64,000 nucleotides of DNA, from contig CM097885.1 in assembly GCA_044892525.1 (NCBI GenBank), positions 34,164,001 to 34,228,000 of the forward strand, given 5' to 3'. Source of the DNA: Schmidtea polychroa (taxonomy: Eukaryota). This document shows, in pieces, positions 47,001-64,000 of the stretch. The notes under the pieces are model-generated. The model had not been told where the DNA came from. It worked only from the letters and a program-made list of their open reading frames with translations, and did no database searches. Position 1 is the stretch's first letter; each line of letters opens with the position of its first letter. The translations under genes were made by a program, and so were the position numbers.

Positions 47001-48312
47001 CTGTCCCATTATAATACTGATCCCATTCACCCTGTCTCTTTATAATACTGATCCCATTCAACCTGTCCCATTATAATATTGATCCCATTAACCTTTTCCA
47101 ATTATAATACCGATCCCATTCAACCTGTCTCTTTATTATACTGATCCCATTCACCCTGTCCCATTATAATATTGATCCCATTAACCTTTTCCAATTATAA
47201 TACCGATCCCATTCAACCTGTCTCTTTATTATACTGATCCCATTCACCGTGTTCTATTATAATATTGATCCTATTCACCATGTCCCATTATAATACTGAT
47301 CCCATTAACCTTTTCCAATTATAATATTGATCCCATTCACCCTGTCTCTTTATAATACTGATCCCATTCACCCGTTTCAATTATAACACTGACCCAATTG
47401 ATTCGGCCCCATTACAATACTTGATCCCATTGAAATTACCCATTTATGACAGTGATCTAATTCAACTTGCCCTATCATAATGCTGATCGCATTACAATAC
47501 TCATCCCATTTGGTTTATCCGAAAATAAAAATTAATAATGTCGCTATGGAAAATTATCTAGTATATAAAAAAAAGTAAAATTTTGAAATTTTGCCCCGAA
47601 TAAAATTTATTGATAGAATCTGAAAGTGTGAAAATTAATTGCACTTTGAACTTTATGTATTTTAAATGAAAATTAACGAGAGAAAATCGTGCCGATTTAA
47701 ACAGTTAATGGCCATCAGCGGTATCTAATTGATGAATTATTGTCATTTTATTTGTCCTCTATCTTTATGTTATCCTATAATTTAATTGTAAATTTTTAAT
47801 ATTTTTCAAATAAAAATCTGTAAATAATTACAACAGATTTGAAATGAAAATGCAGATTTACTTTGTTATTCCGATTTGGTGTGATATACTTGTTAATTTA
47901 TCAGTGCCTAAAATTCAATAAAAATAAAAATGACTTAGAAGTTATATACTTACAATTGGATAAAAATGACGGTTTGAATATTAATGGAATGTGAAATAAT
48001 GAAATTGATAACGAAAATAACCCACTAACTGTTATTAAAATAATTAAAAATATTTGTATTGGTACTAAAACGTATTAAATTAACATGTGCTAATAATTTA
48101 ATTGAAATTACTTCGGATATGAGTTCGATTATATCTAATAAAAGGACAAACTAATAAGAGGAGTAGATATATAAATGAAAATCCATTGTATCTGGTTATT
48201 GTAGCTAAAATAATATTGTGATTAGAAATTTAAAGAAGTAATAACTACATCCTAGCAAACAAACTGGAAGAAATCCTCTCAATAGTATATAGTCAAATGT
48301 TACCCAACTCAT
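1..48312 (-). CDS. piezo: Piezo-type mechanosensitive ion channel, multi-exon gene, 3' end beyond left edge of window
   Basis: 38 GT-AG exons joined by hand in consistent phase (~6.4 kb CDS): 48312-48249, 48204-48112, 48064-47954, 47907-47862, 40372-39707, 37941-37761, 36155-35856, 30911-30639, 28970-28799, 28750-28608, 28561-28413, 28307-28161, 26469-26387, 26113-25962, 24654-24475, 23715-23626, 23574-23374, 23330-23129, 23069-22980, 22880-22724, 22513-22328, 22281-22100, 17885-17735, 17693-17539, 16344-16016, 15971-15768, 15014-14970, 9071-9033, 8882-8597, 8528-8493, 5368-5170, 3793-3475, 2566-2309, 732-692, 643-484, 434-390, 347-181, 134-1. Piezo hallmark peptides: LPVCLLGSTITRYNGFSFIYLL, SGDYYLFE, FLWAMLSVPRPSKNFW, IIDRALFLRK, YPLRILGNFLT. 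Confidence 0.96.
181..347 (-). CDS. piezo: Piezo exon 37
   Basis: IPVPFITMIITQFVFIIIDRALFLRK...HAWLFFALP. Confidence 0.92.
390..434 (-). CDS. piezo: Piezo exon 36
   Basis: TDSADNAFDFIKTNK, phase 0/0. Confidence 0.75.
484..643 (-). CDS. piezo: Piezo exon 35
   Basis: DVYVFMFLCEFIAFLIIIFGYVSFG. Confidence 0.9.
692..732 (-). CDS. piezo: Piezo exon 34 (small)
   Basis: AG/GT bounded; provides the phase needed for the next exon. Confidence 0.55.
1673..1757. repeat. (ATT)n microsatellite
   Basis: Direct reading. Confidence 0.95.
2309..2566 (-). CDS. piezo: Piezo exon 33
   Basis: IKYIFQF...DLIQLLFIFLHRGYLKNNGLW. Confidence 0.92.
2825..3316. repeat. Diverged tandem duplication, two ~230-250 bp copies
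   Basis: aattacttaacaaaactatcata...cagaattattgaag...attacataataa recurs from ~2839 and ~3089. Confidence 0.85.
3475..3793 (-). CDS. piezo: Piezo exon 32
   Basis: SEFVCYFLLILNHM...FLWAMLSVPRPSKNFWIALITYTE. Confidence 0.95.
4050..4720 (+). mobile_element. Degenerate pogo-family transposase remnant
   Basis: RLCYKFMKRNKLSIRSVTSV (CENP-B-type HTH) and KG*INETIKTE*VDKV*RKR resembling KGWMNE..EWLDKVW; boundaries approximate. Confidence 0.65.
5170..5368 (-). CDS. piezo: Piezo exon 31
   Basis: TKEYRRIRRTLDNEKR. Confidence 0.85.
7099..8024 (-). mobile_element. Merlin (IS1016/IS1595-like) DNA transposon with decayed transposase
   Basis: ~24-bp TIRs GGTACTTCTGCAGTATT(T/C)ACCCAA; 8-bp TSD GAAAGAAA (7091-7098, 8025-8032); frameshifted peptides GGDGREVEIDE, RKYNR, WVFG, ISDGWPAY, VNHYETFSDPNTGFHTNRVE. 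Confidence 0.92.
8493..8528 (-). CDS. piezo: Piezo exon 30 (small)
   Basis: KDFEDNLLTVP|GTAAGG, phase 1/1. Confidence 0.55.
8597..8882 (-). CDS. piezo: Piezo exon 29
   Basis: Stop-free 95-codon acidic/Ser-rich loop, AG/GT bounded. Confidence 0.75.
9033..9071 (-). CDS. piezo: Piezo exon 28 (small, uncertain)
   Basis: TLRRSNAVVEDA; donor choice uncertain. Confidence 0.45.
9758..10797 (+). mobile_element. hAT (Buster/Charlie-like) transposon remnant
   Basis: SDIFNKLDEVNLSL...KLNAFKEKLSLW peptide; Buster-like 3' end ggtgcaccgcgaa...acactg; boundaries approximate. Confidence 0.7.
11940..12275. repeat. Imperfect long palindrome (foldback/MITE-like)
   Basis: Nested mirror blocks agatcaataaaatttt/aaaattttattgatct, ttgttgctatataa/ttatataacaacaa, gagacacttga/tcaagtatctc. 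Confidence 0.65.
12990..13750 (-). mobile_element. Tc1/mariner-superfamily transposase remnant
   Basis: DEIYFHLSGYVNKDN resembles the DE.HFHLSGYVNKQN motif; many stops; boundaries approximate. Confidence 0.6.
14970..15014 (-). CDS. piezo: Piezo exon 27 (small)
   Basis: SSVGLDTQGRRQTRR|GTAAGT, phase 0/0. Confidence 0.6.
15475..15576. repeat. (AAT)n microsatellite switching to (ATT)n
   Basis: Direct reading. Confidence 0.95.
15768..15971 (-). CDS. piezo: Piezo exon 26
   Basis: NPLQLINRA; AG/GT bounded, phase 0. Confidence 0.82.
16016..16344 (-). CDS. piezo: Piezo exon 25
   Basis: VRSGDYYLFE followed by an acidic stretch. Confidence 0.9.
17539..17693 (-). CDS. piezo: Piezo exon 24 (beam helix)
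   Basis: GAYLI...LDKIKKKIDKI. Confidence 0.88.
17735..17885 (-). CDS. piezo: Piezo exon 23
   Basis: GLHWDVTCFLFIILQRKIF...ASR. Confidence 0.9.
19020..19361 (+). mobile_element. hAT-like non-autonomous element 3' end
   Basis: gccgcatgcggctcacgagccacaggttggcctcccctg resembles a hAT-Charlie terminus; partner end not located. Confidence 0.55.
20362..21237 (-). mobile_element. pogo/Tigger internally deleted element
   Basis: TIRs CAGTAATACCTCGTACAATGCTC / CAGTAAAATCTCGTATAACGCTC, TA on both sides; ORF 20678-20953 is a Tigger-type C-terminus (DPDSER...QSKLDQFF). Confidence 0.85.
21240..21560 (+). mobile_element. DNA transposase remnant, probably Chapaev3-like (family tentative)
   Basis: HYGRKQWP...LPPIHIKMGLMKNF...(frameshift)FKYL...ISDAKLKAGIFIGPQ, resembling the widespread PPLHIKLGLMK transposase family. 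Confidence 0.7.
22100..22281 (-). CDS. piezo: Piezo exon 22
   Basis: WNVIIYYN...CWMIPLFGVQC. Confidence 0.88.
22328..22513 (-). CDS. piezo: Piezo exon 21
   Basis: SYVDYLK...WLSLAIVFTTG...FCLGY. Confidence 0.9.
22724..22880 (-). CDS. piezo: Piezo exon 20
   Basis: ADFFQFVFVALQYRVF...GGGKN. Confidence 0.88.
22980..23069 (-). CDS. piezo: Piezo exon 19
   Basis: YPF...LQRWLFLP. Confidence 0.87.
23129..23330 (-). CDS. piezo: Piezo exon 18
   Basis: RVDVYS...VGLPPGLC. Confidence 0.9.
23374..23574 (-). CDS. piezo: Piezo exon 17
   Basis: KFCINFAFYKLGLE. Confidence 0.88.
23626..23715 (-). CDS. piezo: Piezo exon 16
   Basis: IDNAKWIGLEK. Confidence 0.85.
23957..24070 (+). mobile_element. Tigger-like terminal fragment
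   Basis: TA|CAGGAAACCCTCGATTAACGCGG TIR-like end; partner end not found. Confidence 0.45.
24475..24654 (-). CDS. piezo: Piezo exon 15
   Basis: LMKMIYQL...TNCS. Confidence 0.88.
25681..25811. repeat. 131-bp near-perfect palindrome
   Basis: 48-bp perfect arms 25681-25728 / 25764-25811; the loop itself is largely palindromic around TCACAATTGTGA. Confidence 0.95.
25962..26113 (-). CDS. piezo: Piezo exon 14
   Basis: WRFFECHFTKIV. Confidence 0.87.
26387..26469 (-). CDS. piezo: Piezo exon 13
   Basis: AG/GT bounded, phase-consistent loop exon. Confidence 0.7.
26567..26778. mobile_element. pogo/Tc1-type MITE (212 bp)
   Basis: TIRs CCGTATATTTCGGC(A/G)TATAAG(G/A)CGACC, TA TSD; interrupts another repeat. 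Confidence 0.9.
26890..26966. repeat. Hairpin repeat family copy
   Basis: aaaaaaattgactatgaatcagtaaa...tttacttattcatagtcaattttttt. Confidence 0.85.
27130..28075. mobile_element. Segment bounded by ~65-bp inverted repeats of the hairpin repeat family
   Basis: 27130-27194 is the near-exact reverse complement of 28011-28075. Confidence 0.7.
28161..28307 (-). CDS. piezo: Piezo exon 12
   Basis: LQDIGL...LLTPVVFLVVIIVQVRYFHKPF. Confidence 0.9.
28413..28561 (-). CDS. piezo: Piezo exon 11
   Basis: WRKQMYVFWWFVIVYSVIVLLCIYTYQF. Confidence 0.9.
28608..28750 (-). CDS. piezo: Piezo exon 10
   Basis: KYWILVCC...VFRIVYMLL. Confidence 0.9.
28799..28970 (-). CDS. piezo: Piezo exon 9
   Basis: FWLTLRLF motif. 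Confidence 0.85.
29741..30134. mobile_element. PIF/Harbinger-like MITE
   Basis: Ends cataattacgtcatgc / gcgtgacctaattatg, TAA-like flanks, GC-richer interior. Confidence 0.5.
30639..30911 (-). CDS. piezo: Piezo exon 8
   Basis: AWSVTYKSWMSFILLLSACYLW, conserved in Piezo. Confidence 0.92.
31372..31546. mobile_element. piggyBac-type MITE (175 bp)
   Basis: TTAA on both sides; TIRs CCATTTCACTGCGT / CCCTTTCCCTGCGT. Confidence 0.8.
34540..34601. repeat. (TA)n microsatellite
   Basis: Direct reading. Confidence 0.95.
35169..35284. repeat. 25-bp perfect inverted repeat
   Basis: acaaaaaatcgaaaattaattctat (35169-35193) / reverse complement (35260-35284). Confidence 0.85.
35480..35670. repeat. AT-rich degenerate tandem repeat
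   Basis: Recurring attaatttcgaaatcgattaagatat(t)aattgaaattaattt. Confidence 0.7.
35856..36155 (-). CDS. piezo: Piezo exon 7
   Basis: Loop ending NSFVFTFIAMM|GTAAG; tandem CAGCAG acceptor (start 36155 or 36152). Confidence 0.85.
36357..36535. repeat. Hairpin repeat family copy with shared flanks
   Basis: gactatgaatcagtaaagatat...atatctttactgattcatagtc plus blocks also found at ~25801 and ~26974. Confidence 0.85.
37761..37941 (-). CDS. piezo: Piezo exon 6
   Basis: RLLGLYYLVNTSC...YLSPCIIMYVYY. Confidence 0.85.
39514..39700. repeat. Imperfect (AAT)n microsatellite
   Basis: Direct reading. Confidence 0.9.
39707..40372 (-). CDS. piezo: Piezo exon 5
   Basis: RLVLPD...AGIISPSILNSVYLFGFLGICTFWA; coding part of ORF 39511..40359. 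Confidence 0.9.
40952..41030. repeat. (ATT)n microsatellite
   Basis: Direct reading. Confidence 0.95.
45650..47510. repeat. 31-bp minisatellite, ~55 core units plus degenerate flanks
   Basis: TATAATACTGATCCCATT core recurs every 31 bp (AATA(C/T)TGATC at 45711, 45742, 45773...) with a small set of variable halves. Confidence 0.95.
47862..47907 (-). CDS. piezo: Piezo exon 4
   Basis: CTDKLTSISHQIGIT (Piezo C...QIG motif); restores phase to next exon. Confidence 0.8.
47954..48064 (-). CDS. piezo: Piezo exon 3
   Basis: TM helix PIQIFLIILITVSGLFSLSISLFH, AG/GTAAGT bounded. Confidence 0.85.
48112..48204 (-). CDS. piezo: Piezo exon 2
   Basis: STITRYNGFSFIYLLLLLVCPF, conserved Piezo N-terminal motif, AG/GT bounded. 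Confidence 0.9.
48249..48312 (-). CDS. piezo: Piezo exon 1 (start codon)
   Basis: MSWVTFDYILLRGFLPVCLLG, GT donor; resembles the Piezo N-terminus. Confidence 0.85.
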
Positions 48313-49367: not shown

Positions 49368-49982
49368 CGTGACTCAGATTTGATCACGCATTTGAAAACC
49401 TACACTGGGGATTACAAACTTATGTTGATCCAGAGGGCCATTAACTATTAAATTAATTAAGTAGTAATAATTAAAATAGGACTGTTGGAGCTAGCACAAC
49501 ACAACATCTATGGCAAAAGTTTATTTAAAATTATAAAAAGACACCAAATAAACAATAAATTTAACTTATTTTTGTAAATTAATTAAAATTATTTACGTTC
49601 TTTAATGCATTTAAAATTTTTTTAATTAGTTGAATTTATTTGCGAGATAGTCTGAGAATTTTAAATTCAGTAGCCAACTGGTTAATGGATGAACCTGCAG
49701 GAATGCATTGAGCAGTTCCTCGTTCGGTTCAGAAATTAGACGAGTAGGGTATGATTTCAGACACTTTGGTAGCCTGGCCTTAAGTAGGTCAGAATCGGCA
49801 AGTTTTTTCGTGTCAGATACGACTTTCTCAAGAATGTCATATGGATTCTGATCAGTCTCTTCACCAACAGGCACTCCAAGATACTGATAAAATTCATTAG
49901 GTTGTAATTTTTTGATTTTAATGCCGTCGATCGAAATTTCACTATCTATTTCAAGGTTTGGCAATTGAAGATATGCACACTT

Positions 49983-52900
49983 TTAAGGGCGATATTCAAA
50001 GCCGATTTCAGCTGCAGTTGCGACAGCTATATCAGTGATTTTCTGAAGTTCTTCAACAGATTTTGTAACTAAAGCTATGTCATCTGCATATGCAAGGATC
50101 TTAATTGGAGATTTCCCAATCCTGAAAGGTCTACAATCGGATCGCGATACAGCTTCAAGTACTGGATTAATGGCCAAAGCAAACAATATCATCGATATTG
50201 GACATCCTTGTTTGACACCTTGTTTAATAGGGATGTTTGGCGTCAGAATATTACCACAGCTGTGAAAGGTACTTGAGTTGGAATATAACATCTGGATGAT
50301 GGATGCAAATTCCTCGCTTACTCCAATGAATCGGAGTAAGGACCACATGTATTCATGAGGAACACTAACAAAGGCATCTTTTATATCAAGCCAAGCAATT
50401 GCAAGAGGCTTATTTATGCTGTATTTTGAGTGTTCTAGTGCAGCAGAAAGAATTGAATTATGCTCAACACATCCATCATGTTGTGAGCCACTTTTTTGAC
50501 CGATATGTAAAAGATCATTCGAGTTTATCCAACTTGTCAGACGACTAGCTAAACAAGATGCGAAAACCTTGTAAATGACAGAAAGCAATGCAATTGGACG
50601 CCAAGACGAGACGTCATCATATTTTCCATCTTTATCCGGCTTAGGAGTTAGGAGCGTTTTGAAAGTCTTCCAACTGTCTGGTATGGTCTTGTTTAAAATG
50701 ATTTTATTGTACAAGAAAGTTAGCAATTTACCCTCGGGATCAAGAGACAACAAGTCACGATATTGATTTCCATCAATACCAGGACATGTGTTCTCAGCTT
50801 TCTTTAGTTCGATAAGTACTTCATCACATGTGAGCAAAATTAAACGAAGTTTAATTTGGGAACGTTTAGAGAACTCAAATATTTTATCCCATGATTTTTC
50901 TAAAGGGGTTTTGTGCATGAAATTCATGACAATATTTTGAAATTTTGGCATCACTGTGATATTTGTATTGTTGAAGATTTTATTGACTGTTGATTTCATA
51001 TCAGTCATGAATTTTGCGATTAATTTACCCTTGTTGATTTTTGAAGGTAATTTCTTTTTATTTCCCAAGTATGGTTTATGAGTTGATTTTAATTTGTCAG
51101 GGAATTGCTCAATGATAACGTCAATGATTTCGTTTGCATTGAAATCTGTCACTCTCCTCAGTAGTTCTAATGCTTTGAGTTTACGCAATTCTAAATTTTC
51201 ATTCCCCTCTTTATTTTTGTTACTGTTTGTTGGTCTTACAGTCTTTTTCCTATTAAAATCTTTTACAGTTGGGATAAATGAGCTGACGACATTACCAATT
51301 TCGCGTAAGTTCAAATTTGTAAGAGGTAAGTCTTTAGCATAGTTTTGGATGAACGCGCATATCAGGATTTGACTAACTAGACCTGATCCTCGAGTGTCAT
51401 GAGGACAATTACCAGTATATAATACACGGCCAGGTGATTCTCTGATTTCATTAATTTTGTTCCTCAGAATTTTGCAGGTACGAAGATAATTTTCATTACC
51501 ACTCAGTGTTGTCGGATTTAGAAGATAGTGCTCATCAGTTTGGTAATCAATGATAAACAAGATTTTCCGTGATTTTTCTGGTGCTACGATAGTAAATATG
51601 ACTTGTGCCTTGATCAACGATTCACAATCTAAAAATTCATTTAAATATCCAGTGCAATCGTCAAGAATCGCAGTGCACATTGTAGCATTTATAAACATGA
51701 ACTTTGTGGGTAAGTTTAATTTATGAATGTATTTTGATGTGATTTCATCATTAATTTTACAGTTAATTAAGTTTAAATTCCTGGAGATCTCGTTTGTTTG
51801 TTGTATTTTATAAGATTTAAGGGAGTCACTGATACTTCTACGGCAAACCTGATTGTCAAAAAGTAATTTTTCGACCAATTCAATGACAGCAGAAGCAAAT
51901 ATATCTGGGTCAACAGATGTGATGGAAATGTGGTCGATGTTGTGGAGACTATTGAAGTTGATCTTCGTTTGAGAAAGGAAAAATTTATTCATATAGTCTG
52001 TCATGTTTTCTCCTATGCCGATTAGTCTCTCAGTTAGAATTCTGTTGTTAAAGTTGAAAATGTAACTGATTCCTAAAACGAAAGAGAAAAGATACAGACT
52101 CCAATTCGTGTCGTCTGGAATGACGCTGATAACATGTTCTATTCCAGCAAATTGTTTAAACGTGACATTTTCCCTGATGAATATATCGTTTTGTGCAATA
52201 ATATTCAATGTCAGTTCAGTAGAGAGAACAGTAATATTACTTCTATCTTTATACCATTCACTAATCAAGTATGTGACACATGAGTTCTGTTTTTGGAGAT
52301 ATATCAGGTTATCATTTCTCACCTTCTTAACTCCATTCCGTTTGATTGTCTCCATGAATTTTGGAAGGCCACCCCCCGAAGTTTTGGGATCTTTTTGTTG
52401 TTGAGTAAGTTTAAACTGGTGGACCTCTTTCCTGATAGTCTCGATGAAGCAGCCCGACAAGCTCTGCCATTCTCCACAAATCATCATGGCATATGCGCAG
52501 ATGTATGGCCCACAATCGTAGCTATTATTTTGATATAAAAGGTTATTATGAGGATGAAAAGTCATGGCTGCTTTAAGGTCAAACAATTCATTCAGAGCCA
52601 TTGTGATCTTAAGAGCAATTGTTTTATTCGTAAAACTATGCCGATTTAGAAGGATTGGATCAATGAAGTAAGAAATTAGAGAAGATTTACAATAAACGAA
52701 CAAGATCCAATGAGATTTGTCGATGTTAAGGGGGCATAATATTACTTGTGCTTTCAAGACTCTTTCCGGAATTGGGAAAGTGTCATTCTCGAGGTTAGAG
52801 CACAAAATCTCAACGATAAAACATTTGATAGACGCAAATTCTGGGTTGATGATCTGATTTTCGAGAAAATTATCAATATCATCATCAGTGAACCAGATCT

Positions 52901-53027
52901 TTGAGTCGCGTTTTACCATCAAATTTTTATTATTATTAATGATGTCGCGATGTTTATCAGTATTTTTTGTGCTGTCTGCATCAGTCTCCTTAGAGATTGG
53001 GGCAGATGTTGAGACTGATGCAGGCAC
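49983..53027 (-). CDS. Ulp1/C48 cysteine protease + reverse transcriptase
   Basis: WFTDDDID, SHWIL, FIDP, QNNSYDCG; RT motifs CPGIDG, WRPIAL, WLDIKDAF, GVKQGCPIS, YADD. Confidence 0.93.
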   Translation of the reverse strand: MPASVSTSAPISKETDADSTKNTDKHRDIINNNKNLMVKRDSKIWFTDDDIDNFLENQIINPEFASIKCFIVEILCSNLENDTFPIPERVLKAQVILCPLNIDKSHWILFVYCKSSLISYFIDPILLNRHSFTNKTIALKITMALNELFDLKAAMTFHPHNNLLYQNNSYDCGPYICAYAMMICGEWQSLSGCFIETIRKEVHQFKLTQQQKDPKTSGGGLPKFMETIKRNGVKKVRNDNLIYLQKQNSCVTYLISEWYKDRSNITVLSTELTLNIIAQNDIFIRENVTFKQFAGIEHVISVIPDDTNWSLYLFSFVLGISYIFNFNNRILTERLIGIGENMTDYMNKFFLSQTKINFNSLHNIDHISITSVDPDIFASAVIELVEKLLFDNQVCRRSISDSLKSYKIQQTNEISRNLNLINCKINDEITSKYIHKLNLPTKFMFINATMCTAILDDCTGYLNEFLDCESLIKAQVIFTIVAPEKSRKILFIIDYQTDEHYLLNPTTLSGNENYLRTCKILRNKINEIRESPGRVLYTGNCPHDTRGSGLVSQILICAFIQNYAKDLPLTNLNLREIGNVVSSFIPTVKDFNRKKTVRPTNSNKNKEGNENLELRKLKALELLRRVTDFNANEIIDVIIEQFPDKLKSTHKPYLGNKKKLPSKINKGKLIAKFMTDMKSTVNKIFNNTNITVMPKFQNIVMNFMHKTPLEKSWDKIFEFSKRSQIKLRLILLTCDEVLIELKKAENTCPGIDGNQYRDLLSLDPEGKLLTFLYNKIILNKTIPDSWKTFKTLLTPKPDKDGKYDDVSSWRPIALLSVIYKVFASCLASRLTSWINSNDLLHIGQKSGSQHDGCVEHNSILSAALEHSKYSINKPLAIAWLDIKDAFVSVPHEYMWSLLRFIGVSEEFASIIQMLYSNSSTFHSCGNILTPNIPIKQGVKQGCPISMILFALAINPVLEAVSRSDCRPFRIGKSPIKILAYADDIALVTKSVEELQKITDIAVATAAEIGFEYRP

Positions 53028-53033
53028 GCACCT

Positions 53034-54995
53034 TCATTTAATCTTGGAGACTACTTTCCTCGTTTTCCTACTTGGTCTTGTTAGTAGGTCCTCCTGTTGA
53101 TCACAACTGGAAATTGCGGGAGTAGATGGGATTATATCCAAATCAACAGGCAGCTGTCGTTTCAGAGTCGCATGTTCTTGTAGATCACCCTCCAGAATGT
53201 CGTTAATCTCTATGGATCGAGATGGCTCTTTCACAGCTGCTTCCACCGAGGTGTCTAATCCAGATGTGTTTCTCCTCTGCTCACCATTACTTTCAATCAC
53301 AGATGTCAAGAGGACATCAAGCATGTCTGTGATAATGCAAGTCATATTTGGTGTGCAAATTTTCCTACAATGCTTAGGTATACGGTAGGAGAATTTACTG
53401 TTAGATAAAAATTTCTTTTTGTTTCTAATGATAAAAAAGAGAAATCTTTTAGCTTTTATCATCTCTTCTTCGGATGTGCCTAATTCCATTTGATTAATGT
53501 TGCGGCCCAAATTCTCAAGAACCTTAAGTTGGGCAGCCTTTTGTGGACAGATTTCATCAATTTTGTCAAGAAAGGAATTGATTTTATAGATGGTTTCTGG
53601 AGAGATAATGTTGTGTATTCTATCGATCTCCTCTGACAGTTTCCACTGTCGAAGTTTTAGTAGTCTTTCCTGACAACTAGAAGAGTAGTATGAAAGACTG
53701 GGGATCATATTAATCATCTCCGGACCCCAATTTTCGATGTTGTCGCACCTTAATGTATTGCAATTTTCAATTTTAGTAATTGAGTGCATCAAAAAACAAT
53801 TACGTAAATAGTTTTTAACGTACTCATCAAATGTAGGATTTGAAATGTGTATTATGGTGCCTTTTAAATTTAAATAGTTGATATAATATATTATGTCAAC
53901 CAGTTTAGATGGGGAGTTTGGCTGAGTCAGAAGAGAGTTAAGTATGGGGTCATCTTCTGACATTTTAACAAAATTAATCAATCCCAGGTTGAACATTATA
54001 TCAGACGCATTTTCAGAATGCGGGACTTTAGGAATTTCAGTAATTTTATTAGTTTTAATAAATTTGCCCTTCACAAACGAGATCTCGTTAGGGAAATATT
54101 TTTCTAATTTTAAATCATTAATTAATTTAGTTAGTAAATCAGGATTCTTATTTATATTCTCAGAAAAATATAATTCCTGAATTTCAGGAAACGATTTATA
54201 TAACTCTTTCAACTGTGATCGCGAAAGTTCTAAGGTTTGAAGACTGGTGTTCTCATTACCAGAGTCACAGCTATTGAAAAGATCTAATAAGATAAAATCA
54301 CCTTCAGAAAATTTTATCTGTGATCTTATCAAGAAATCGGGAAGTTCACGTCGTTGTTTCATTCCATTCAAGATGTTATTTGTCTGTGCCGCTCTTTGAT
54401 TTATATTTTTGATGGTAGCCGTCTCTGCGAGCTTATGTGAGAGGGAATACAAAAATCTTTTAATTACAGAGGATGCAGGGATAAAACTATCAACATATTT
54501 GTTAGTTTTAACAATATTTGAATCTATTAGCGAAATTTTCAATGCACTAGAAGTCTTTATCTCGATCGGGGCTTTCGCTTTATAGTTCAATTTATGGGAA
54601 ACGCATATGTTGTGGTTTCTGTAAAAGAAATGTGAAAAATCCACGATCGACAAAGGATTATCATTTCCAGATATAGAAGCTAATTCTTTATTTATTGTTT
54701 GAAATTTATTCAGAGTTTCCCGAGACTTAATTAATTTACCTAATTTTGGAAAAAGTTTTATCAAATTTATTTTCTCCGTCCTTGAAAGAGTTCTTACATA
54801 AGATGGGAAAATTGAATTTGAGTATTTTTTGTTATTAATCAAATTTTTGCTTTTAAAATATTTTGTATTTTGATACATTTTATTTTTCAAAAGGCCTTTG
54901 TTTTCTTTAGCCAAAAAATTTGAATCGTTTTTTTCAACTTTAATTATATTTAATTTTGATTTGTTTAAGTTATTTAATTTAATATTAGATAACAT
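53034..54995 (-). CDS. Retrotransposon polyprotein N-terminal region, unknown function
   Basis: 653-aa ORF in frame with upstream ATG 55679 and the downstream protease/RT. Confidence 0.75.
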   Translation of the reverse strand: MLSNIKLNNLNKSKLNIIKVEKNDSNFLAKENKGLLKNKMYQNTKYFKSKNLINNKKYSNSIFPSYVRTLSRTEKINLIKLFPKLGKLIKSRETLNKFQTINKELASISGNDNPLSIVDFSHFFYRNHNICVSHKLNYKAKAPIEIKTSSALKISLIDSNIVKTNKYVDSFIPASSVIKRFLYSLSHKLAETATIKNINQRAAQTNNILNGMKQRRELPDFLIRSQIKFSEGDFILLDLFNSCDSGNENTSLQTLELSRSQLKELYKSFPEIQELYFSENINKNPDLLTKLINDLKLEKYFPNEISFVKGKFIKTNKITEIPKVPHSENASDIMFNLGLINFVKMSEDDPILNSLLTQPNSPSKLVDIIYYINYLNLKGTIIHISNPTFDEYVKNYLRNCFLMHSITKIENCNTLRCDNIENWGPEMINMIPSLSYYSSSCQERLLKLRQWKLSEEIDRIHNIISPETIYKINSFLDKIDEICPQKAAQLKVLENLGRNINQMELGTSEEEMIKAKRFLFFIIRNKKKFLSNSKFSYRIPKHCRKICTPNMTCIITDMLDVLLTSVIESNGEQRRNTSGLDTSVEAAVKEPSRSIEINDILEGDLQEHATLKRQLPVDLDIIPSTPAISSCDQQEDLLTRPSRKTRKVVSKIK

Positions 54996-55783
54996 TTGTT
55001 CTTCAAATTTAGGTAAATAAAATTCTACTTTTCGAATTTTATTATTAACAGTTATTTTTAATTCAGGTTCCAGATATCCACATGCCTGAGCCTGATCGTC
55101 AAGAGAAGGGCCACTCCGGATAACCGAATCGGAACTCGATATTTTTAAAAATAAATTTTTATTTAAATTTTTTACTTCATTTCTAGTTAAGTAATTAGTA
55201 TAATTAGGATCATTATTATCATTATATATATATGTTCTAGATCCAGCATTTAAGGGTTTATTTATAATTTTAGGTTTAATTATATTTAAAGACTTTGAAT
55301 TATTTCTTAATTTAGTAATATAAGAAATTTTTTTATTTAATTTATGTTTTTGATTTTGAAAATCATTTACTTTATTTTGATAAGAATTATATTTATCAGA
55401 ATGAAATCCATTACTAAAATTGTTTTTAAATTCATTATTTTTTACAAAATTATTTAAAAGAGAAGCATTGGCATTCTCAGGTTATAAACTGTAATCTAGA
55501 TTTATATAGTTCAAAAATAAATCAATCTTACGTTTAATTTCCAGAAATCCATCCTCAATCGAAAACATCCTACTTGACAAGTCCAAAAGGCCATCTTCCA
55601 TGGAAATCAGTCCAGAATCTAATCTAGGCATATTTTCATTTGAACGTTGTGCATATAAATAGTTTTTGTCGATATCCATTTGTTAAAATTAACAATCAAT
55701 TTGCTACTGATAGATTGAAAGTAGTTATAATAATTTCAAATTTTCGTCTGTCACAATTTTTTAGCTAAATCAATTAATTTAAT

Positions 55784-55856
55784 TGCCGCGAACCGGGATC
55801 GAACCAGTGACCTTTAGATCTTCAGTCTAACGCTCTCCCAACTGAGCTATCGCGGC
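55784..55856 (-). tRNA. tRNA-Phe (GAA), complete, T5 terminator replaced by retrotransposon 5' end
   Basis: GCCGCGATAGCTCAGTTGGGAGAGCGTTAGACTGAAGATCTAAAGGTCACTGGTTCGATCCCGGTTCGCGGCA; all stems pair. Confidence 0.97.
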
Positions 55857-56027
55857 TTATTTACAATAACAGACATCAGCTCATCACTGGTAAATTCCAC
55901 TAGAGCTTTATTTTCAAATTTTCATCAAACACCAATCTTATTTCCAACGTTCAAATTCATTATCATTTGAATTCAGATCAATATAATATTTCAATTTCAA
56001 TATTTGACAAGTGACATAAATTTTTTC

Positions 56028-56032
56028 AAAAA
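56028..56032 (-). terminator. Pol III T5 terminator
   Basis: TTTTT 6 nt after the tRNA 3' end. Confidence 0.7.
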
Positions 56033-56038
56033 TTTAAT

Positions 56039-56111
56039 TGCCGCGAACCGGGATCGAACCAGTGACCTTTAGATCTTCAGTCTAACGCTCTCCCAACTGA
56101 GCTATCGCGGC
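56039..56111 (-). tRNA. tRNA-Phe (GAA), complete
   Basis: Identical 73-nt cloverleaf followed by ATTAAATTTTT. Confidence 0.97.
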
Positions 56112-56203
56112 TTATTTACAATAACAGACATCAGCTCATCACTGGTAAATTCCACTAGAGCTTTATTTTGTTGGGCTAGAACTGATTTCTAGACCCAAAA
56201 TAC

Positions 56204-56855
56204 TAATTGTGACTGAAACGTGTAGGTACACAGCAAGTAAAAAGCACCAAGTATAGTTAAATATTAAAACCTACACCAAATAAACAATATTAACTAAAGG
56301 AGAAAGCAACAAAAACATAAACAAAGAAATTAAATAAAATTATACAAATGCAAGAAGTGATGCAAAAATCTAACTCAAAAATAACCAAATAAACATAACA
56401 TTACCAAAAGCAAACTCGAATAACTTAAAAGACGATAAAAACAGTAAAACATTCCAGAAAAACCCAGAACATTCTATAAAATGGCGATGACCATCACAAA
56501 AGTCATCTAGAACAACAAAAGTTAAGGAAAATAAATAAATTAGTATTAAAAAAAAAAAAAAATCTCAAAAAGAATTCATAAAAACATCAGTTAAAATAAA
56601 AATTAAATTAAAAGTAAAATAGAATGTTCTGGAACCGTTCCAAATCCATCATGGACGTAAAATTAATGAAAAATAATTAAAAAATAAAAATATAAAAATA
56701 AAAACAAAAATTATGGCACAAAAATTGCCATTAAAAATAGCAAAATCGTAAAATAGAAAATTCTGGAATAAAAAGAATTCGAGTTTGTTTTAATGCATCA
56801 ATACATACACGTGTACAAAATAGGTATATATACTGACACGTTTCAGTCAGAATTA
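56204..56855. repeat. Segment bounded by 20-bp inverted repeats (possible nested element)
   Basis: taattgtgactgaaacgtgt / acacgtttcagtcagaatta, 19/20 match. Confidence 0.7.
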
Positions 56856-58474
56856 ACCATTATTTTATGCCAAAATTTTTGTGTCAACAAAATATCAACA
56901 GTGAGTACGATTGATTCATTTTATCTATTATTATTTTATTTTATTATTATGTATTGTTGTCTCAACTATGTTAAGCTATTAAAATGTTTTATATTTTGAA
57001 TTTGTTTAATTAAAGTTTTTTTTTGATGTACGAATGTTCAACGGCGTACCGGTATTCCTGCGTCGTTGTTCAGTCCTGCATTTAATTTTTGAATTTGATT
57101 TCACATGCACACATACATTATTTATATTATACTAATCACTTATTACATGGCTCTTTTTGTGTTCGGGTCCTTCGGAGGTCGAACTACTTCATGGTCCTGC
57201 CATGGAGTTAGGTCGAGGAAAACCTCCGTCTGACTCTTTGTATTTATGTAAGGTCGACCGTAAATGGTTGACTCAACACATAACACTAAGGTTTGTGGAA
57301 GTGGTCACAGTGGGGCCATGGAAGCAATATTCTTCCCGACTCATTACGTAATATACAATTAAACTCAACACTTAAAATTCTGAACAAATAACTCCACACT
57401 AAGGTCCTAATCTGAGTAGAACTCATACTTAAATTGACACAATTATACAAATCACAGCAATGTAGATGGTTGATCAGTTATGCTTAGACATATGCCGAAT
57501 TGGGTTTTCGTAACAGTCGTTTATAGTAATCAGAGTAATGGAAAGGTTAAAGATATTCGGCATACGTGTAAGTATAACATAATCTAGTTAAGTCTTCGAA
57601 TCAATATAACTGTAAATATTCCGGACCCCAAAAATTAAGATGCGAAATCCCATCTTAACATACTTATAAGTACTCGGTTGTAATAATCTTTTATGTTGAT
57701 TATAAAACTACAGGTGATAAATGACTATGTCGTTGTAGGTACGAATTATAGCCAGAGAATATAAATTAGGAATTCAGAAATTGAGGTATAAATCGGGAAT
57801 GGTAATGACCAATCTCCTAATGTAAAAAGTCAATCAACTTGAAACTAGTTATACATAGATATACTGCAACTCTGAAGTGATAAAATGATACCCAGAAATC
57901 GGTAAGACAATGTTGATAATAGAAAGGGAAGTTAGAAAGAAGTATACCAAGCTGACCAAAAATTAGAACCCAAAAATATGAAATTATAAATTAGGAATAC
58001 CGAATTACAAATTGTAAATCATAAAACCTAAAATTTTAAATCAGAAAATATAAAATCATAAATGGTAGAATATCGGATTATAACTTATAAGATATAAAAT
58101 TATAATTTACGAAATATAAATGGATAAATTATAAAATATGAAATTTTTAATTGTAAACGATAAAATTATAAATTATAAAATATCAATTCCTAAATTACAA
58201 AATATAAAAATTATGAATTGCAAAATAAAAATTTATAAACTATAAAACTTAAATTTGCAAGTTATAAAATATAAAATTATAAATTATAATTACCTATAAA
58301 CTATAACCACCTATATATTACTTAACAAAATGGTATAAATATAGAGTATGAAAAAACTAGAATTAATACTTAACTTAGAAATTTCGAAATATATATAGTT
58401 ACAATAAGCTTGCCTCTAAGTACAAAAATCCCTTTAAGATTATAAAATAACTGTAAAATTTTTGTAATTCTTAA

Positions 58475-58970
58475 TATCATCACTAGGGTTTCTATTAATA
58501 TTACTAATATTATTAGTATTACCATTATCACTAGTATCATTATTATCCCTATTCGTATCATTATTATTACTATCATTATTATTAATATGATCACTATTAT
58601 TATTATTATTATTACTATTATTACTATTATTATTGTTATTATTGTTAATATTATCACTATTATTATTATCATGATAATCATTATTATTATCATTATTATT
58701 ATTATTATTTTCATTATTATTATTATTATTATTACTACTATCATTATTAATATTATCATTATGATTATTATTACTCTTATTATTATTATTATGATTGATA
58801 TTATTATTATTATTAATCTCGTTATCATTACTATCCTCATTACGACCATTATTATTATCATTATCCTTATTATTATTATCGTTACCATGGTTATTATTGT
58901 TATCCCGGTTGTTGCTATTAGTACTATTAGCGATAAGTTATATACGACTTGACTATTATTATTACTAATA
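58475..58970. repeat. Degenerate (ATT/ATC/ACT)n triplet repeat
   Basis: Direct reading. Confidence 0.9.
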
Positions 58971-59003
58971 CTGCCCTTAATATATATAATTTAATTGTAG
59001 ATA

Positions 59004-59006
<3 letters not shown>

Positions 59007-59069
<63 letters not shown>
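59007..59069. repeat. (TA)n microsatellite
   Basis: Direct reading. Confidence 0.95.
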
Positions 59070-59070
<1 letters not shown>

Positions 59071-59959
59071 TTAGTCATGGTGGAATATATTAGTAAATGC
59101 ATAAATATTATACTGATTATATGGTATCATTATTACTACTTATAAAAATCAATATCCCAATCTGATATTGATTTTAGGATTTCCCCAATAAATTAAATAT
59201 AGAAACAACCCTTTGAGCCAATCAGAGGGATCAGAATTCGGAAAAACTATTTTTAGCAACACCCCCCCCCCTCTGGGAGAATGTTACCATTATTCAAGCC
59301 ACCTAGGGATGTGAATAAGGGGGTAGGATCAGCTATGCAAGTTAACACTGAATATATAATCAAACTTAAGTTTTATCAAATCAACCTAAACGAGAAATTT
59401 TATTCATCAAATTGCCTTGAATAATAAAGTACTGTACACCCGGGTTATAGATGCCAAGCACCATGATTTTCACCTAAGAACGAGAAGCCGAACTCCAGGA
59501 GCTGAATCTCTAACTCTCCAGCTGAAAAACGATCGCCAAATTGTCCCTAAATTAAACACATACGATGAAAGAATAAATTACCCCAAATGCATAGACGATG
59601 ATTTTACCACTTATAACGAATACAACCAGGGGAAGAGTAAGTGGGCAAGAGACTGAGCTCGTCACTAGTACCCTTCGCCTGACGTAATCGCATTTAGTGG
59701 AAATATTCACATCTACAGAAAATTACCTAAAATTTTCCAAAATTTTAACTTATAAAATTCAAATTACCAACTAGTGGTAAATAAATGACGAATGATTAAA
59801 TTAATAATTTAAAACAAAACCATTTTTTTTTGAGATTTTCGGATCGGGTATGGATTTTCTGATGTTAACACTTAACTCTAATGAATTTTTATTTAATTAA
59901 AAAGTATATCAATAGATTAAATAAAATTTGGTCATGTGAGAAGGATTTATATTAATTAC

Positions 59960-60059
59960 AATAAATTTAGTAGTATAATAAATTTAGTAGTATAATAAAT
60001 TTAGTAGTATAATAAATTTAGTAGTATAATAAATTTAGTAGTATAATAAATTTAGTAGT
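59960..60059. repeat. 17-bp tandem repeat x~6
   Basis: aataaatttagtagtat. Confidence 0.93.
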
Positions 60060-60162
60060 TAAGTACTATTGATTTTGAACAAGAACTTTCTGTATGTTTG
60101 TTGTGACATCTATTTATAAGCCACGTTGGCTACGAGCGGGCCTTAATATTCATATTATAGAC

Positions 60163-60528
60163 ATGTCGCAATCGAGCTCTAGCAGTGACGAGGGTACTGA
60201 CCATCAGATGATCACCCGTCTCCGGACCCGGTACATCTGGCACCATATACATCGGTGGGGTCAGGGAAGGGACCTGGACTGCGCAGATAGAGTGATCCGG
60301 ACGGGCCCCGAAGTAGATGCCCCGGCATGGGTGAAGGTGGAGCCGGGGAATAACCGGTTACAGGAGGCCCGAGATCAAGCAGCCTGGGAGGTGGAAGCCG
60401 CTCAGATGCGACTCAAGAAGATCGAGATGCAAATCAAGGCAGAAAAGGAGGGAGTGCCTCTGGAAGAATTGGAAGAATTCGAGGCACCCATGAGAAAGAG
60501 GGGAAGGCCCCGCAAGCACCCCGCGTAA
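60163..60528 (+). CDS. Orphan 121-aa protein with short coiled coil and C-terminal AT-hook
   Basis: GC-rich island coinciding with the ORF from MSQSSSSSDEG; ends RKRGRPRKHPA. Confidence 0.6.
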   Translation: MSQSSSSSDEGTDHQMITRLRTRYIWHHIHRWGQGRDLDCADRVIRTGPEVDAPAWVKVEPGNNRLQEARDQAAWEVEAAQMRLKKIEMQIKAEKEGVPLEELEEFEAPMRKRGRPRKHPA

Positions 60529-60817
60529 TTGTGAGAGGACAATTCGCTCGACATTGACAATTTGTTTTATATGAACTAATTATTAGGAATCTGCTGTGTT
60601 TTATTTTATCTTTTAATTTTGTATTAATAGACGTCGGGTGTTTATTCTCGAATAAAGTATTCTTATGTGTTTTGTAAATCATTTGATAGATGGGGTGATA
60701 TAAGGATGCCCTAGTAGGAAATGTTAACATTAATTCATTGATTTTAATATTTATCGTTCTAACTTTATTGTTGGGTGTAATGGGAACTAATGAATTTCCT
60801 CTTTAGTGTACAAGCTA

Positions 60818-61276
60818 ATGGAAAATCTCCGGAAGGATCGGGAGCAGGCCCAGCACCAAGCCGACGAACTCCGGGTCCGGGTGGACAAGTTGAAGGGAAA
60901 ATGTCGAGAGTTCGAAGGGACCTGGTTTAGTCCCGAAGCAATGAAAAAGAAAACCGCCCAGATCCTCCAGCTGCAAACGCAGGCCGCCCAAGACCAAATA
61001 GAGATCCGCGCCCTGAAGCTACAGGTGCGGGTGCTCGAAACTGAGAAAAACGAGCAGTTGGTACAAGGGGCCATAGCCAGACAAATACGGCCACTGGCTG
61101 TGGACCTCGCAACTATATATCCCCCAGCCGCTGAAAATAAGCCCAAAAGGAAACGGCTTGGCCGAAATATTCGGGAGAAATTGAAGAAAGCTAGGCTGGC
61201 CGAATACGAGCGGCAAGCAAATTCGTCACCAGCAGCCACGACGAAATTGGCCAGTCCTACCAATAAGCCTGTTTGA
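60818..61276 (+). CDS. Orphan 152-aa coiled-coil protein with basic NLS-like tail
   Basis: GC-rich island coinciding with the ORF; heptad-like Q/E/L/K-rich N-terminal half; KPKRKRL. Confidence 0.6.
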   Translation: MENLRKDREQAQHQADELRVRVDKLKGKCREFEGTWFSPEAMKKKTAQILQLQTQAAQDQIEIRALKLQVRVLETEKNEQLVQGAIARQIRPLAVDLATIYPPAAENKPKRKRLGRNIREKLKKARLAEYERQANSSPAATTKLASPTNKPV

Positions 61277-61802
61277 ACTTATATTCGGTTTAAGGTGTTT
61301 TGTAGTATATTTGTGTATTGTTGTAGTCTTCAAATAATATGTTCCTTATTAAAATAATGCACATTTTGCAGTGATAAAATAATGACTAGTATAGTTTATG
61401 ATTGCCTGGAAAATGAGAGTTTGTGCATAAGGTTGGGAAAACAATTTTGATAAAGGGACCTGAGGAATCGGACACACACCTTCTATCGGTAGTCCGTGAA
61501 CCCATGGAGTGCTCGACAATTATAGTGCTTTGATGCGCTCACTTTTTGCGAGTACTAAACCCTTGGTACAGTACCAACGTTGATTGCTCAACGGGTACCA
61601 AGAGGAAAACAACGTTGTATTCTGCGTTACGCTGGTAACAGCACTCAAACATTCAACCACCGGTAACCCACCAATTTTCAAATTTTCATCAAACACCAAT
61701 CTTATTTCCAACGTTCAAATTCATTATCATTTGAATTCAGATCAATATAATATTTCAATTTCAATATTTGACAAGTGACATAAATTTTTTCAAAAATTTA
61801 AT

Positions 61803-61869
61803 TGCCGCGAACCGGGATCGAACCAGTGACCTTTAGATCTTCAGTCTAACGCTCTCCCAACTGAGCTAT
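61803..61869 (-). pseudogene. tRNA-Phe lacking nucleotides 1-6 (retrotransposon insertion site)
   Basis: Identical to positions 7-73 of the intact copies; GCCGCG replaced by the element 3' UTR. Confidence 0.93.
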
Positions 61870-64000
61870 AGTTAAAACATTTATTAATTATAATAAATTT
61901 GATATTTGTATTTACAATAGGACAGTGTTCAGCATGGAACACGCCTTTCGAGAAAATAACAAGAACAAAAGAGTCAGAAAGAAATCGATCATATTCAATG
62001 TATTTTTCGGGATTATTTCGACTCAGATGTTAATGTCAATTTTCTGATTAGTCCCTGGCTCTGATGATATCGCAGTCATCGGATGTTTTATCCGGCTTTG
62101 AATATTGGAGTGTTCAATTACATCAGTTTTCACCAGTCATTCAACCTGCAATCTGTTTCCTGGGCTGATGTTGAGAATCTGAACCTTCAATACGCAGCAT
62201 CGAAACAATATCCCTGCAATAGACAAAAAAAGCATATTTACATGTTTATAAATATATACAACTGCCTTTCTTTTGGAGGGTTCATCTAAAATTCTAAATA
62301 TATACAAAGATATTTATACATATACATTGATATTTAAAAACCCGAGAATGACAATGCTTCTGAGATCTTAGAGCAATTTGTTATGGAGATTTTTCTAATT
62401 AAGGTCTGCTAAAGTGCCAGTTTTGTGGTAGTACCACCGTCTGGCAGAATGTGTGATGTTACTTATCGTACATTCCTTCAGTAGACTGTTTATTTCTGTG
62501 CGTTTAACTCCAATTTTTAAAAGGATTTCAGGAGTTGATGACGGAAAAGAACCCAAAGCTCCGATAATACAAGTGTCAAGTTCGACTTTGAAATCAGGTT
62601 TGACAGCTTGTATTTCATTCTTAAGCGATTCGTATTTAATTAAATTTGAAGAGTCAACTAGTTGAAAGTTCTTGACAGAGTCGATAGGACATTTCATGTC
62701 AACTAGAAAGATCTTCCTTTTCAACAAATCAGTGATCATTAAATCCACTCGTTCTTTGGAATTCGGAACAAGTGAACAGATATGATCTACTACAACAATC
62801 AAGTTGGGATTTTTCATTAATCGATTAGTGATTAATTTCAGACAGTCATCATGTCGCTCTGAGGCAAGGGTCAGATGGACTTTACAAGATTGAATGACAT
62901 GTGACATTGTCTCTTCCTCAGTTTGACAACGACGACAAAGTCTTTTACCACCTTTATTGTAAGGCTTCGCATTGACTGAGAGGGAGTTTGTGCGAGCTCT
63001 GTGTATGAAGTTCCAAGCAAATTCAGAGAGAGCACCACGAAAAATTGCGATGTTTATTTTAGGCGAAAGTCTGATTGCTGCAGCTATAATGTTGGAGTTA
63101 TGACTGTTCTCTCCTTTCAAAAGATAGGCATCGCAGAGTGCCATGTGCAAAACCTTAGACGTGGTTTGGCGTAAGTCAGAAGTGAGAATACACGTGCCAC
63201 GCATTGCTGTTGTAATATAAAGCGATGTTTCTTGCTTTGTTACAATAAATGCTATTGAGATTTTGTGATATTTTTCAAAAAATGCAATAGCAGTTCTGAC
63301 TCGCTGGAATCGAGTTTTCTTTCCAGAATGGCAAAGTTTGGATTGCTTACCATTGAGCCAGTCAAGACTCTCCTGTAGTGTAGGGTCTTTTATTCCGAGT
63401 CGAGGTCCAGTGACAAAGCTCAGAGAATCAGTGTTGATCTTTTTCGCAAAGTCACACTTCGATGTTAAGAGTCGAAAGAAATGTGTTATTGTCTGTGTGT
63501 GATATTCGTCAAGAAGGTCTACACAGTTTGCTCCTCCGTTTTCAGTTGAGTTGTAGAAATAACTTACTTCAGAGTGATTTGGCAAAAGTAACATTTTTCT
63601 GAGACAACTCCTCACTTGACTGGTGATGTTGACAGAACGATTACTATTGGCGCTTGGTTTTGAAAGAGCGCTAGTTTTAATTTCGCGAGTTCTAAAGGGA
63701 AAAATCAAACGTGAATGGACAAAGATCTTATAAGCTTTAAGTTTTTGCCATCCAAGTAGGTCAGAGTCGGCAAGTTTTTTCGTGTCAGATACGACCTTCT
63801 CAAGAATGTCATATGGATTCTGATCAGTCTCTTCACCAACAAGCACTCCAAGATACTGATAAAATTCATTAGGTTGTAATTTTTTGATTTTAATGCTGTC
63901 AATCGAAATTTCACTATCTATTTCAAGGTTTGGCAATTGAAGATATGCACACTTTTCAGGGCGATATTCAAAGCCAATTTCAGCTGCAGTTGCTACAGCT
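61870..64000 (-). mobile_element. NeSL-like non-LTR retrotransposon, copy 2 (3' portion; continues beyond right edge)
   Basis: RT thumb, CCHC knuckle, RLE and 525-nt 3' UTR joined to tRNA-Phe nucleotide 7. Confidence 0.93.
62395..63999 (-). CDS. Retrotransposon polyprotein C-terminus: RT thumb, CCHC zinc knuckle, restriction-like endonuclease (partial)
   Basis: KC...YQYLG; GGAN; CRRC...ETMSHVIQSC; RHDD; RVDLM...VDMKCP...KY; IIGALG; frame open to window edge. Confidence 0.92.
   Translation of the reverse strand, partial: AVATAAEIGFEYRPEKCAYLQLPNLEIDSEISIDSIKIKKLQPNEFYQYLGVLVGEETDQNPYDILEKVVSDTKKLADSDLLGWQKLKAYKIFVHSRLIFPFRTREIKTSALSKPSANSNRSVNITSQVRSCLRKMLLLPNHSEVSYFYNSTENGGANCVDLLDEYHTQTITHFFRLLTSKCDFAKKINTDSLSFVTGPRLGIKDPTLQESLDWLNGKQSKLCHSGKKTRFQRVRTAIAFFEKYHKISIAFIVTKQETSLYITTAMRGTCILTSDLRQTTSKVLHMALCDAYLLKGENSHNSNIIAAAIRLSPKINIAIFRGALSEFAWNFIHRARTNSLSVNAKPYNKGGKRLCRRCQTEEETMSHVIQSCKVHLTLASERHDDCLKLITNRLMKNPNLIVVVDHICSLVPNSKERVDLMITDLLKRKIFLVDMKCPIDSVKNFQLVDSSNLIKYESLKNEIQAVKPDFKVELDTCIIGALGSFPSSTPEILLKIGVKRTEINSLLKECTISNITHSARRWYYHKTGTLADLN

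Follow-up and report, generated by a model that had tools for sequence, protein, structure and literature searches.

A complete tRNA-Phe gene in front of a LIN25-like retrotransposon of Schmidtea polychroa is most likely the preceding unit of a tandem array

A complete tRNA-Phe gene lies directly before one copy (copy 1) of a LIN25-like non-LTR retrotransposon in the planarian Schmidtea polychroa, and is most likely the previous unit of a tandem tRNA-Phe array, to which the element is connected by an imprecise, one-off junction. The window analysed here is a stretch of 64,000 nucleotides (GenBank assembly GCA_044892525.1, contig CM097885.1, positions 34,164,001 to 34,228,000), and positions given without a contig name refer to it. 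The gene is the edge unit of an array with a 255-bp repeat, and a further 47 tRNA-Phe genes are present in the adjacent assembly stretch. Because the gene belongs to such an array, a whole tRNA upstream of copy 1 is expected; any imprecise 5' joint in a tandem array leaves a complete tRNA upstream, so that no mechanism for rebuilding the gene is necessary. An earlier note on the window had proposed an insertion that regenerates its target, by a template jump onto a pre-tRNA, by a permanent tRNA head on the element, or by an unusually long target duplication.

Results

The tRNA-Phe array and the copy 1 junction

The features of the region are listed in Table 1. The order given in the earlier note, in which an intact 73-nt tRNA-Phe is followed by 8 nt of trailer, a 96-nt leader (55775-55680, minus strand) and the ATG at 55679, is present as claimed. 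The tRNA-Phe gene is identical to its neighbor at 56039-56111 (minus strand), behind which the native trailer runs on with further T residues, such that the joint interrupts the terminator. The leader had been taken to be element sequence throughout; this holds for the part nearer the ATG, whereas 55781-55729 is like the spacer of tRNA-Val arrays.

Table 1. Features at and around the copy 1 junction, in window coordinates.
Feature	Position	Strand	Remarks
Copy 1 of the LIN25-like element	49782..55728	-	3' 1.9 kb and downstream tRNA half missing
ORF2 of copy 1, Ulp1-like protease and reverse transcriptase	49983..53033	-	Pfam PF02902, E 1.9e-5; PF00078, E 3.3e-23
ORF1 of copy 1	53034..55679	-	ATG at 55679; ~880 codons in unbroken copies; ends with TGA in frame with ORF2
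Piece of tRNA-Val array short spacer, before the element core	55729..55781	-	52/53 nt match (98%)
ATTAAATT, first 8 nt of native tRNA-Phe trailer, terminator broken	55776..55783	-	Comparison with next unit
tRNA-Phe(GAA), complete, 73 nt; array unit directly before copy 1	55784..55856	-	ARAGORN; Rfam RF00005, 70.1 bits
One whole 255-bp array unit, tRNA-Phe 56039-56111 and 182-nt spacer	55857..56111	-	
Solo LTR, 5.5 kb, TG...CA ends, in array spacer	56169..61673	.	4-bp ATTT duplication
Remnant of tRNA-Phe (nt 5-73), the half of the target lying downstream of copy 2	61803..61871	-	Private change at nt 6
Copy 2 3' end, CCHC knuckle and endonuclease-like region	61872..64000	-	Terminus TTTTAA

The Val-like piece spans positions 3-55 behind the tRNA-Phe, and its native counterparts are the Val spacers at C1:219.9-220.4 Mb. 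The pentanucleotide TAAAT is common to the Phe trailer and the incoming Val spacer, and the base that follows it is the Phe-type T in copy 1, as against C in 36 and A in 2 of 38 Val spacers; the joint is thus one of Phe trailer to Val spacer at a 5-nt microhomology. Copy 2 likewise carries a Val spacer piece, of 28 nt, a Ser-targeted copy is preceded by a 40-nt piece of Phe spacer, and a copy beside Cys genes by a piece of Ser-GCT spacer. Within the Val arrays the element lies directly after the short spacer. From these arrangements we infer that the Val piece before copy 1 is a 5' transduction from the donor site, and that the element RNA would begin within host spacer upstream of the element core.

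The surroundings of the junction include several other repeats. The solo LTR within the array spacer is unrelated to the junction; its relatives are found as direct pairs ~30 kb apart, and we take it to resemble the giant planarian LTR elements named Burro. A 31-bp satellite with ~60 copies occupies window positions 45560-47500. The tRNA isotypes seen in the genome are each arranged in a separate long tandem array, with units of 218-427 bp, and the tRNA-Val arrays contain a mixture of CAC and TAC genes with two spacer types.

Element copies, open reading frames and classification

The element is a LIN25_SM-like RLE non-LTR retrotransposon, of a kind known from flatworms. It has the precise, target-specific 3' junction and the absence of LTRs that characterize RLE-type elements, and the Ulp1-like protease upstream of the reverse transcriptase (RT) that is a trait of the NeSL clade (R5/LIN lineage). 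The RT is closest to the R2 group, the top matches among PDB sequences being R2 proteins (E 1e-48 to 1e-22), and PF02902 is carried by 9 of the 11 best homologues; the close homologues have no family name. A CCHC motif and a D...D-x-K motif were recognized by eye in the C-terminal translation, a region with no Pfam match, and may represent a knuckle and a PD-(D/E)xK-type endonuclease. A search of Rfam with window positions 54900-62500 (E up to 1) returned none of the ribozyme families known to Rfam, HDV-like or other, and the 5' joints are variable, unlike the uniform joints expected of an R2-like co-transcript processed by a ribozyme.

Copy 1 is damaged, with a frameshift in ORF1 and a premature stop in ORF2, and forms the longest end branch within its clade. 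Many other copies have both ORFs open. A single TGA separates ORF1 from ORF2 (53034-53036, minus strand, in copy 1) and is followed by AGG in all 38 contexts found, which makes it a candidate site of stop-codon readthrough. Five sequencing runs in two studies contain window positions 52000-55775, none of them on record as RNA. An 830-nt RT segment, contained in 58 of 66 copies, is identical between copies in Val, Phe and Ser arrays, and likewise between copies in Met, Glu and Ser arrays, which points to recent movement from array to array.

A sister family with 65-70% identity has its insertion site before nt 19 of tRNA-Cys (G000:C1:270,741,300-270,750,000). The two families are nested at the tRNA-Cys site and beside tRNA-Ala.

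3' ends and target specificity

A 21-nt motif from the 3' end of the element occurs 118 times in the genome; among the 100 matches listed, the two at C1:134.46 Mb and C3:38.18 Mb were discarded because no element surrounds them. Sixty-five 3' ends were inspected, many of which are array duplicates or alternative contigs and thus do not represent independent events. The earlier note had placed the cut after nt 6 of the tRNA, but in 60 of the 65 the element directly adjoins nt 5 of a standard tRNA gene, and the apparent nt-6 boundary arises because nt 6 of the tRNA-Phe remnant in the window has a private change from G to T. These 60 are distributed over genes for Phe (3), Val (4), Ser-TGA (9), Ser-GCT (10), Met (1), Glu (4), His (19) and Tyr (10). 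Three others lie in a dispersed repeat, at tRNA-like sites where the register to the A box is the same, one is in a tRNA-Ala gene 2-3 nt off, and one has no tRNA. ARAGORN calls of Pro and Asn for intron-containing tRNA-Tyr genes were rejected, the sequence having a GTA anticodon.

Eight arrays representing seven amino acids have the 3' boundary at this one position, nt 5, which precedes the A box by three bases, and the element nuclease seems to recognize the A-box region that many tRNA genes have in common.

5' joints across the family

The 5' joints fall into 17 types, located between -29 and +338 relative to the end of the upstream tRNA. A clean upstream half-site (leader plus nt 1-4) is absent from all 61 testable copies. 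A search of the assembly with the +8 joint of copy 1 gave a single exact match, and the reversed control gave none. Target-regenerating insertion with a fixed tRNA head or a fixed duplication is not borne out by these data, there being no constant +8 joint among independent copies. Random breakpoints at other copies had been named in the earlier note as a pattern that would make this junction a one-off rearrangement; breakpoints do vary among the other copies, and the +8 joint is unique.

Copy 2, whose 5' end had been put forward as a check, has its junction beyond the window (G000:C1:34,234,050), at +86 from the upstream tRNA end and not at +8. Its front consists of an inverted 317-nt piece (G000:C1:34,233,734-34,234,050) that duplicates element nt 148-464, an arrangement also present on contigs C103 and C337 and presumably akin to twin priming.

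Only two of the 17 joint types lie within 12 nt of the tRNA end, Phe +8 and His +2, the latter belonging to a 5'-truncated copy and likewise situated at a terminator; the chance of at least two is P 0.12. Among the 5'-truncated joints measured (n=7), three have an exact overlap of 1-4 nt, one is blunt, and three have extra bases. Measured from the nick register, the joints of Phe copy 2, a His copy and a Glu copy (+86, +87 and +88) lie 155, 155 and 156 nt farther downstream and would correspond to duplications of these lengths, a cluster with P ~0.03 by simulation, in a test chosen after the cluster had been noticed. The two flanks of the Glu 156 joint have 4-5 differences.

Deletion or duplication of the target

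At copy 1, a deletion of 178 bp and a duplication of 77 bp are indistinguishable, because its 3' end is lost and a homogeneous array yields the same sequence either way. Array copies were compared for identity between the upstream flank and the downstream remnant. The two were identical in 23 of 53 copies, where a random unit would give 29, and there is thus no general signal of duplication; the test is weak, as the arrays are near-homogeneous, the copies are non-independent, and later recombination may swap flanks. This comparison kept 53 of the 65 copies, leaving out four Val copies and eight with a short flank or no upstream target. In the His and Glu arrays, unit variants could not tell a duplication from a deletion, since they are shared by neighboring units.

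Three insertions are located in a non-tandem, high-copy dispersed repeat with several tRNA-like sites. The 5'-truncated copy at G000:C2:77,876,367-77,878,665 (C2:77.876 Mb) has a true target duplication of 471 bp, with mismatches only in homopolymer length, which begins at the nick and ends at the 5' joint with a 4-nt microhomology; all 11 empty copies of this repeat have the target once. The insertion at C2:77.880 Mb has lost ~300 bp of target, and that at C3:49.98 Mb is rearranged or has a large deletion. The family can thus rebuild its target, but does not do so as a rule, given one such duplication and deletion or rearrangement in the other two of the three non-tandem insertions. Deletions demonstrable at non-homogeneous targets are those of ~300 bp (C2:77.88 Mb) and of 9 bp in a Val array (C1:220.2 Mb). 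The fixed 75-bp target duplication proposed in the earlier note is contradicted by this 9-bp deletion and by the spread of the joints; duplication of variable length does stand for one insertion, at 471 bp.

Discussion

We consider that the copy 1 joint probably arose when target-primed reverse transcription began at a nick between nt 4 and 5 and the Val-spacer end of the cDNA was joined by microhomology to the trailer of the preceding gene. The next Phe gene would likely have been nicked between these nucleotides, and element RNA starting in a host Val spacer would have been copied from the nick, supplying the 53-nt front piece. The cDNA end likely paired through the 5-nt match with the trailer of the previous Phe gene, and this pairing, if the outcome was a deletion and not a duplication, would have removed 178 bp and spared the preceding Phe gene. 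Weighing against this account are the 471-bp duplication at a non-tandem site, the second joint at a terminator (His +2), and the truncated joints at which exact overlap is absent, so that microhomology is not a feature of every joint.

The duplication counterpart of this event is a good deal less likely and supposes that a top-strand break fell 77 nt downstream of the first nick, which doubled nt 5-73 and eight trailer bases and rebuilt the gene upstream. It gains from the 471-bp case, with its microhomology and single-target empty sites, from the post hoc cluster of joints in three arrays, and from related elements: one 5' boundary of LIN15_SM lies ~40 nt past its 3' boundary (S6 Fig of PMC4640811), and a duplication of 1228 bp is recorded for ZfL2-2 (PMC2666801). 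It is opposed by the array flanks, which have no excess identity, by the differing flanks of the Glu 156 joint, and by the deletion or rearrangement at two of the three non-tandem insertions. A broader version is similarly doubtful, in which A-box recognition would direct a nick at nt 4/5 of any tRNA gene and the second strand would often be opened a long way downstream (~155 bp and up to 470 bp away, perhaps set by chromatin); many insertions would duplicate and rebuild their target, and copy 1 would be a 77-bp case.

The remaining explanations are less probable still. The first option of the earlier note has the RT switch templates, from the element RNA to the U-rich 3' terminus of pre-tRNA-Phe, the copied tRNA then annealing to the target. 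The structure this predicts fits copy 1, whose joint is inside the T run, and the His copy joins at +2; yet two of 17 types near the terminator are within chance, both joints have imperfect AT-rich microhomology with the incoming sequence, the upstream tRNA-Phe is free of copying errors, and the other 15 types lie away from any pre-tRNA end. We found no positive support for such a jump and regard it as improbable. Equally improbable is a joint made after insertion, by a deletion or ectopic recombination that linked a Val-type copy to the Phe trailer at the edge of the array. The condition of copy 1, with its missing 3' end, broken ORFs and long end branch, and its place at the array edge beside the solo LTR would suit such an event, but copy 2 combines the 28-nt Val spacer with an undamaged 3' end at nt 5 of a Phe gene, which indicates that retrotransposition alone brings Val-headed copies into the Phe array. 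A permanent tRNA head trimmed by RNase Z, or a duplication fixed at 75 bp, is almost certainly wrong. Sibling copies within one array do often have a common joint (Ser, Tyr and Val), as is expected from array amplification; against this, joints vary, the upstream tRNA differs by array, copies outside arrays have none, and near-identical copies stand behind Val, Ser, Met, Glu, His or Tyr genes or behind no tRNA. The sense strand furthermore has 63 runs of at least four T, 19 of them of at least five, the first being 96 nt behind the tRNA, and these 19 longer runs make a Pol III co-transcript implausible.

The closest described relative is LIN25_SM of Schmidtea mediterranea, a member of the R5/LIN lineage of the NeSL clade that was called tRNA-Glu-specific (Kojima and Jurka 2015, PMC4640811). 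It has the same register, before tRNA nt 5, and a similar 3' terminus, TTTAA, without a poly(A) tail, and in S6 Fig it appears also with one tRNA-Tyr flank and with tRNA-like flanks in Polintons (PMC4640811). Insertion before nt 5 of tRNA-Glu(TTC) is found in S. polychroa too, at 4 of 65 3' ends. The sequence likeness to LIN25_SM is drawn by eye from its printed last 40 nt, which are similar and not identical, and that figure gives no 5' boundaries (PMC4640811), whereas the copies described here have variable 5' joints, carried spacers, a 471-bp duplication, and targets in eight arrays of seven amino acids. LIN15_SM is an RLE element of the same lineage that also targets tRNA genes, those of several tRNA-Arg isoacceptors, but inserts near nt 23 in the D-arm and not at nt 4/5 (PMC4640811). 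NeSL-1 and Utopia-1_TSP share the Ulp1-like protease ahead of the RT and differ in targeting spliced-leader and U2 genes; for Phytophthora Utopia, the same source reports that the expected U2 5' half was not found upstream of array copies (PMC4640811). In the open literature, Repbase Reports aside, neither the 5' joints of LIN25 nor nt-4/5 targeting across several isotypes was found described.

The 5' ends are best compared with those of R2, for which variable, microhomology-primed joints with deletions are established where upstream homology is absent (PMC2718515; PMC3774820). In both, the 3' ends are precise while the 5' ends vary and include deletions, microhomologies and extra bases; upstream host sequence can form part of the R2 RNA (PMC2718515; PMC3774820), as would be the case for the LIN25-like family. 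R2 differs in its 28S rDNA target and its HDV-like ribozyme, none having been found by Rfam in the part of the window searched. The LIN25-like family, for its part, has two ORFs in one frame and a Ulp1-like domain, and its 5' ends can be altered over hundreds of bases. With ZfL2-2 in cells, duplications on the kilobase scale are found alongside large deletions (PMC2666801).

The scope of LIN25_SM-like elements is thus broadened from tRNA-Glu alone to many tRNA genes. The natural set of 5' joints, which includes small and large deletions, a 471-bp duplication, an inversion and carried spacer, informs the question of how RLE elements join the second strand.
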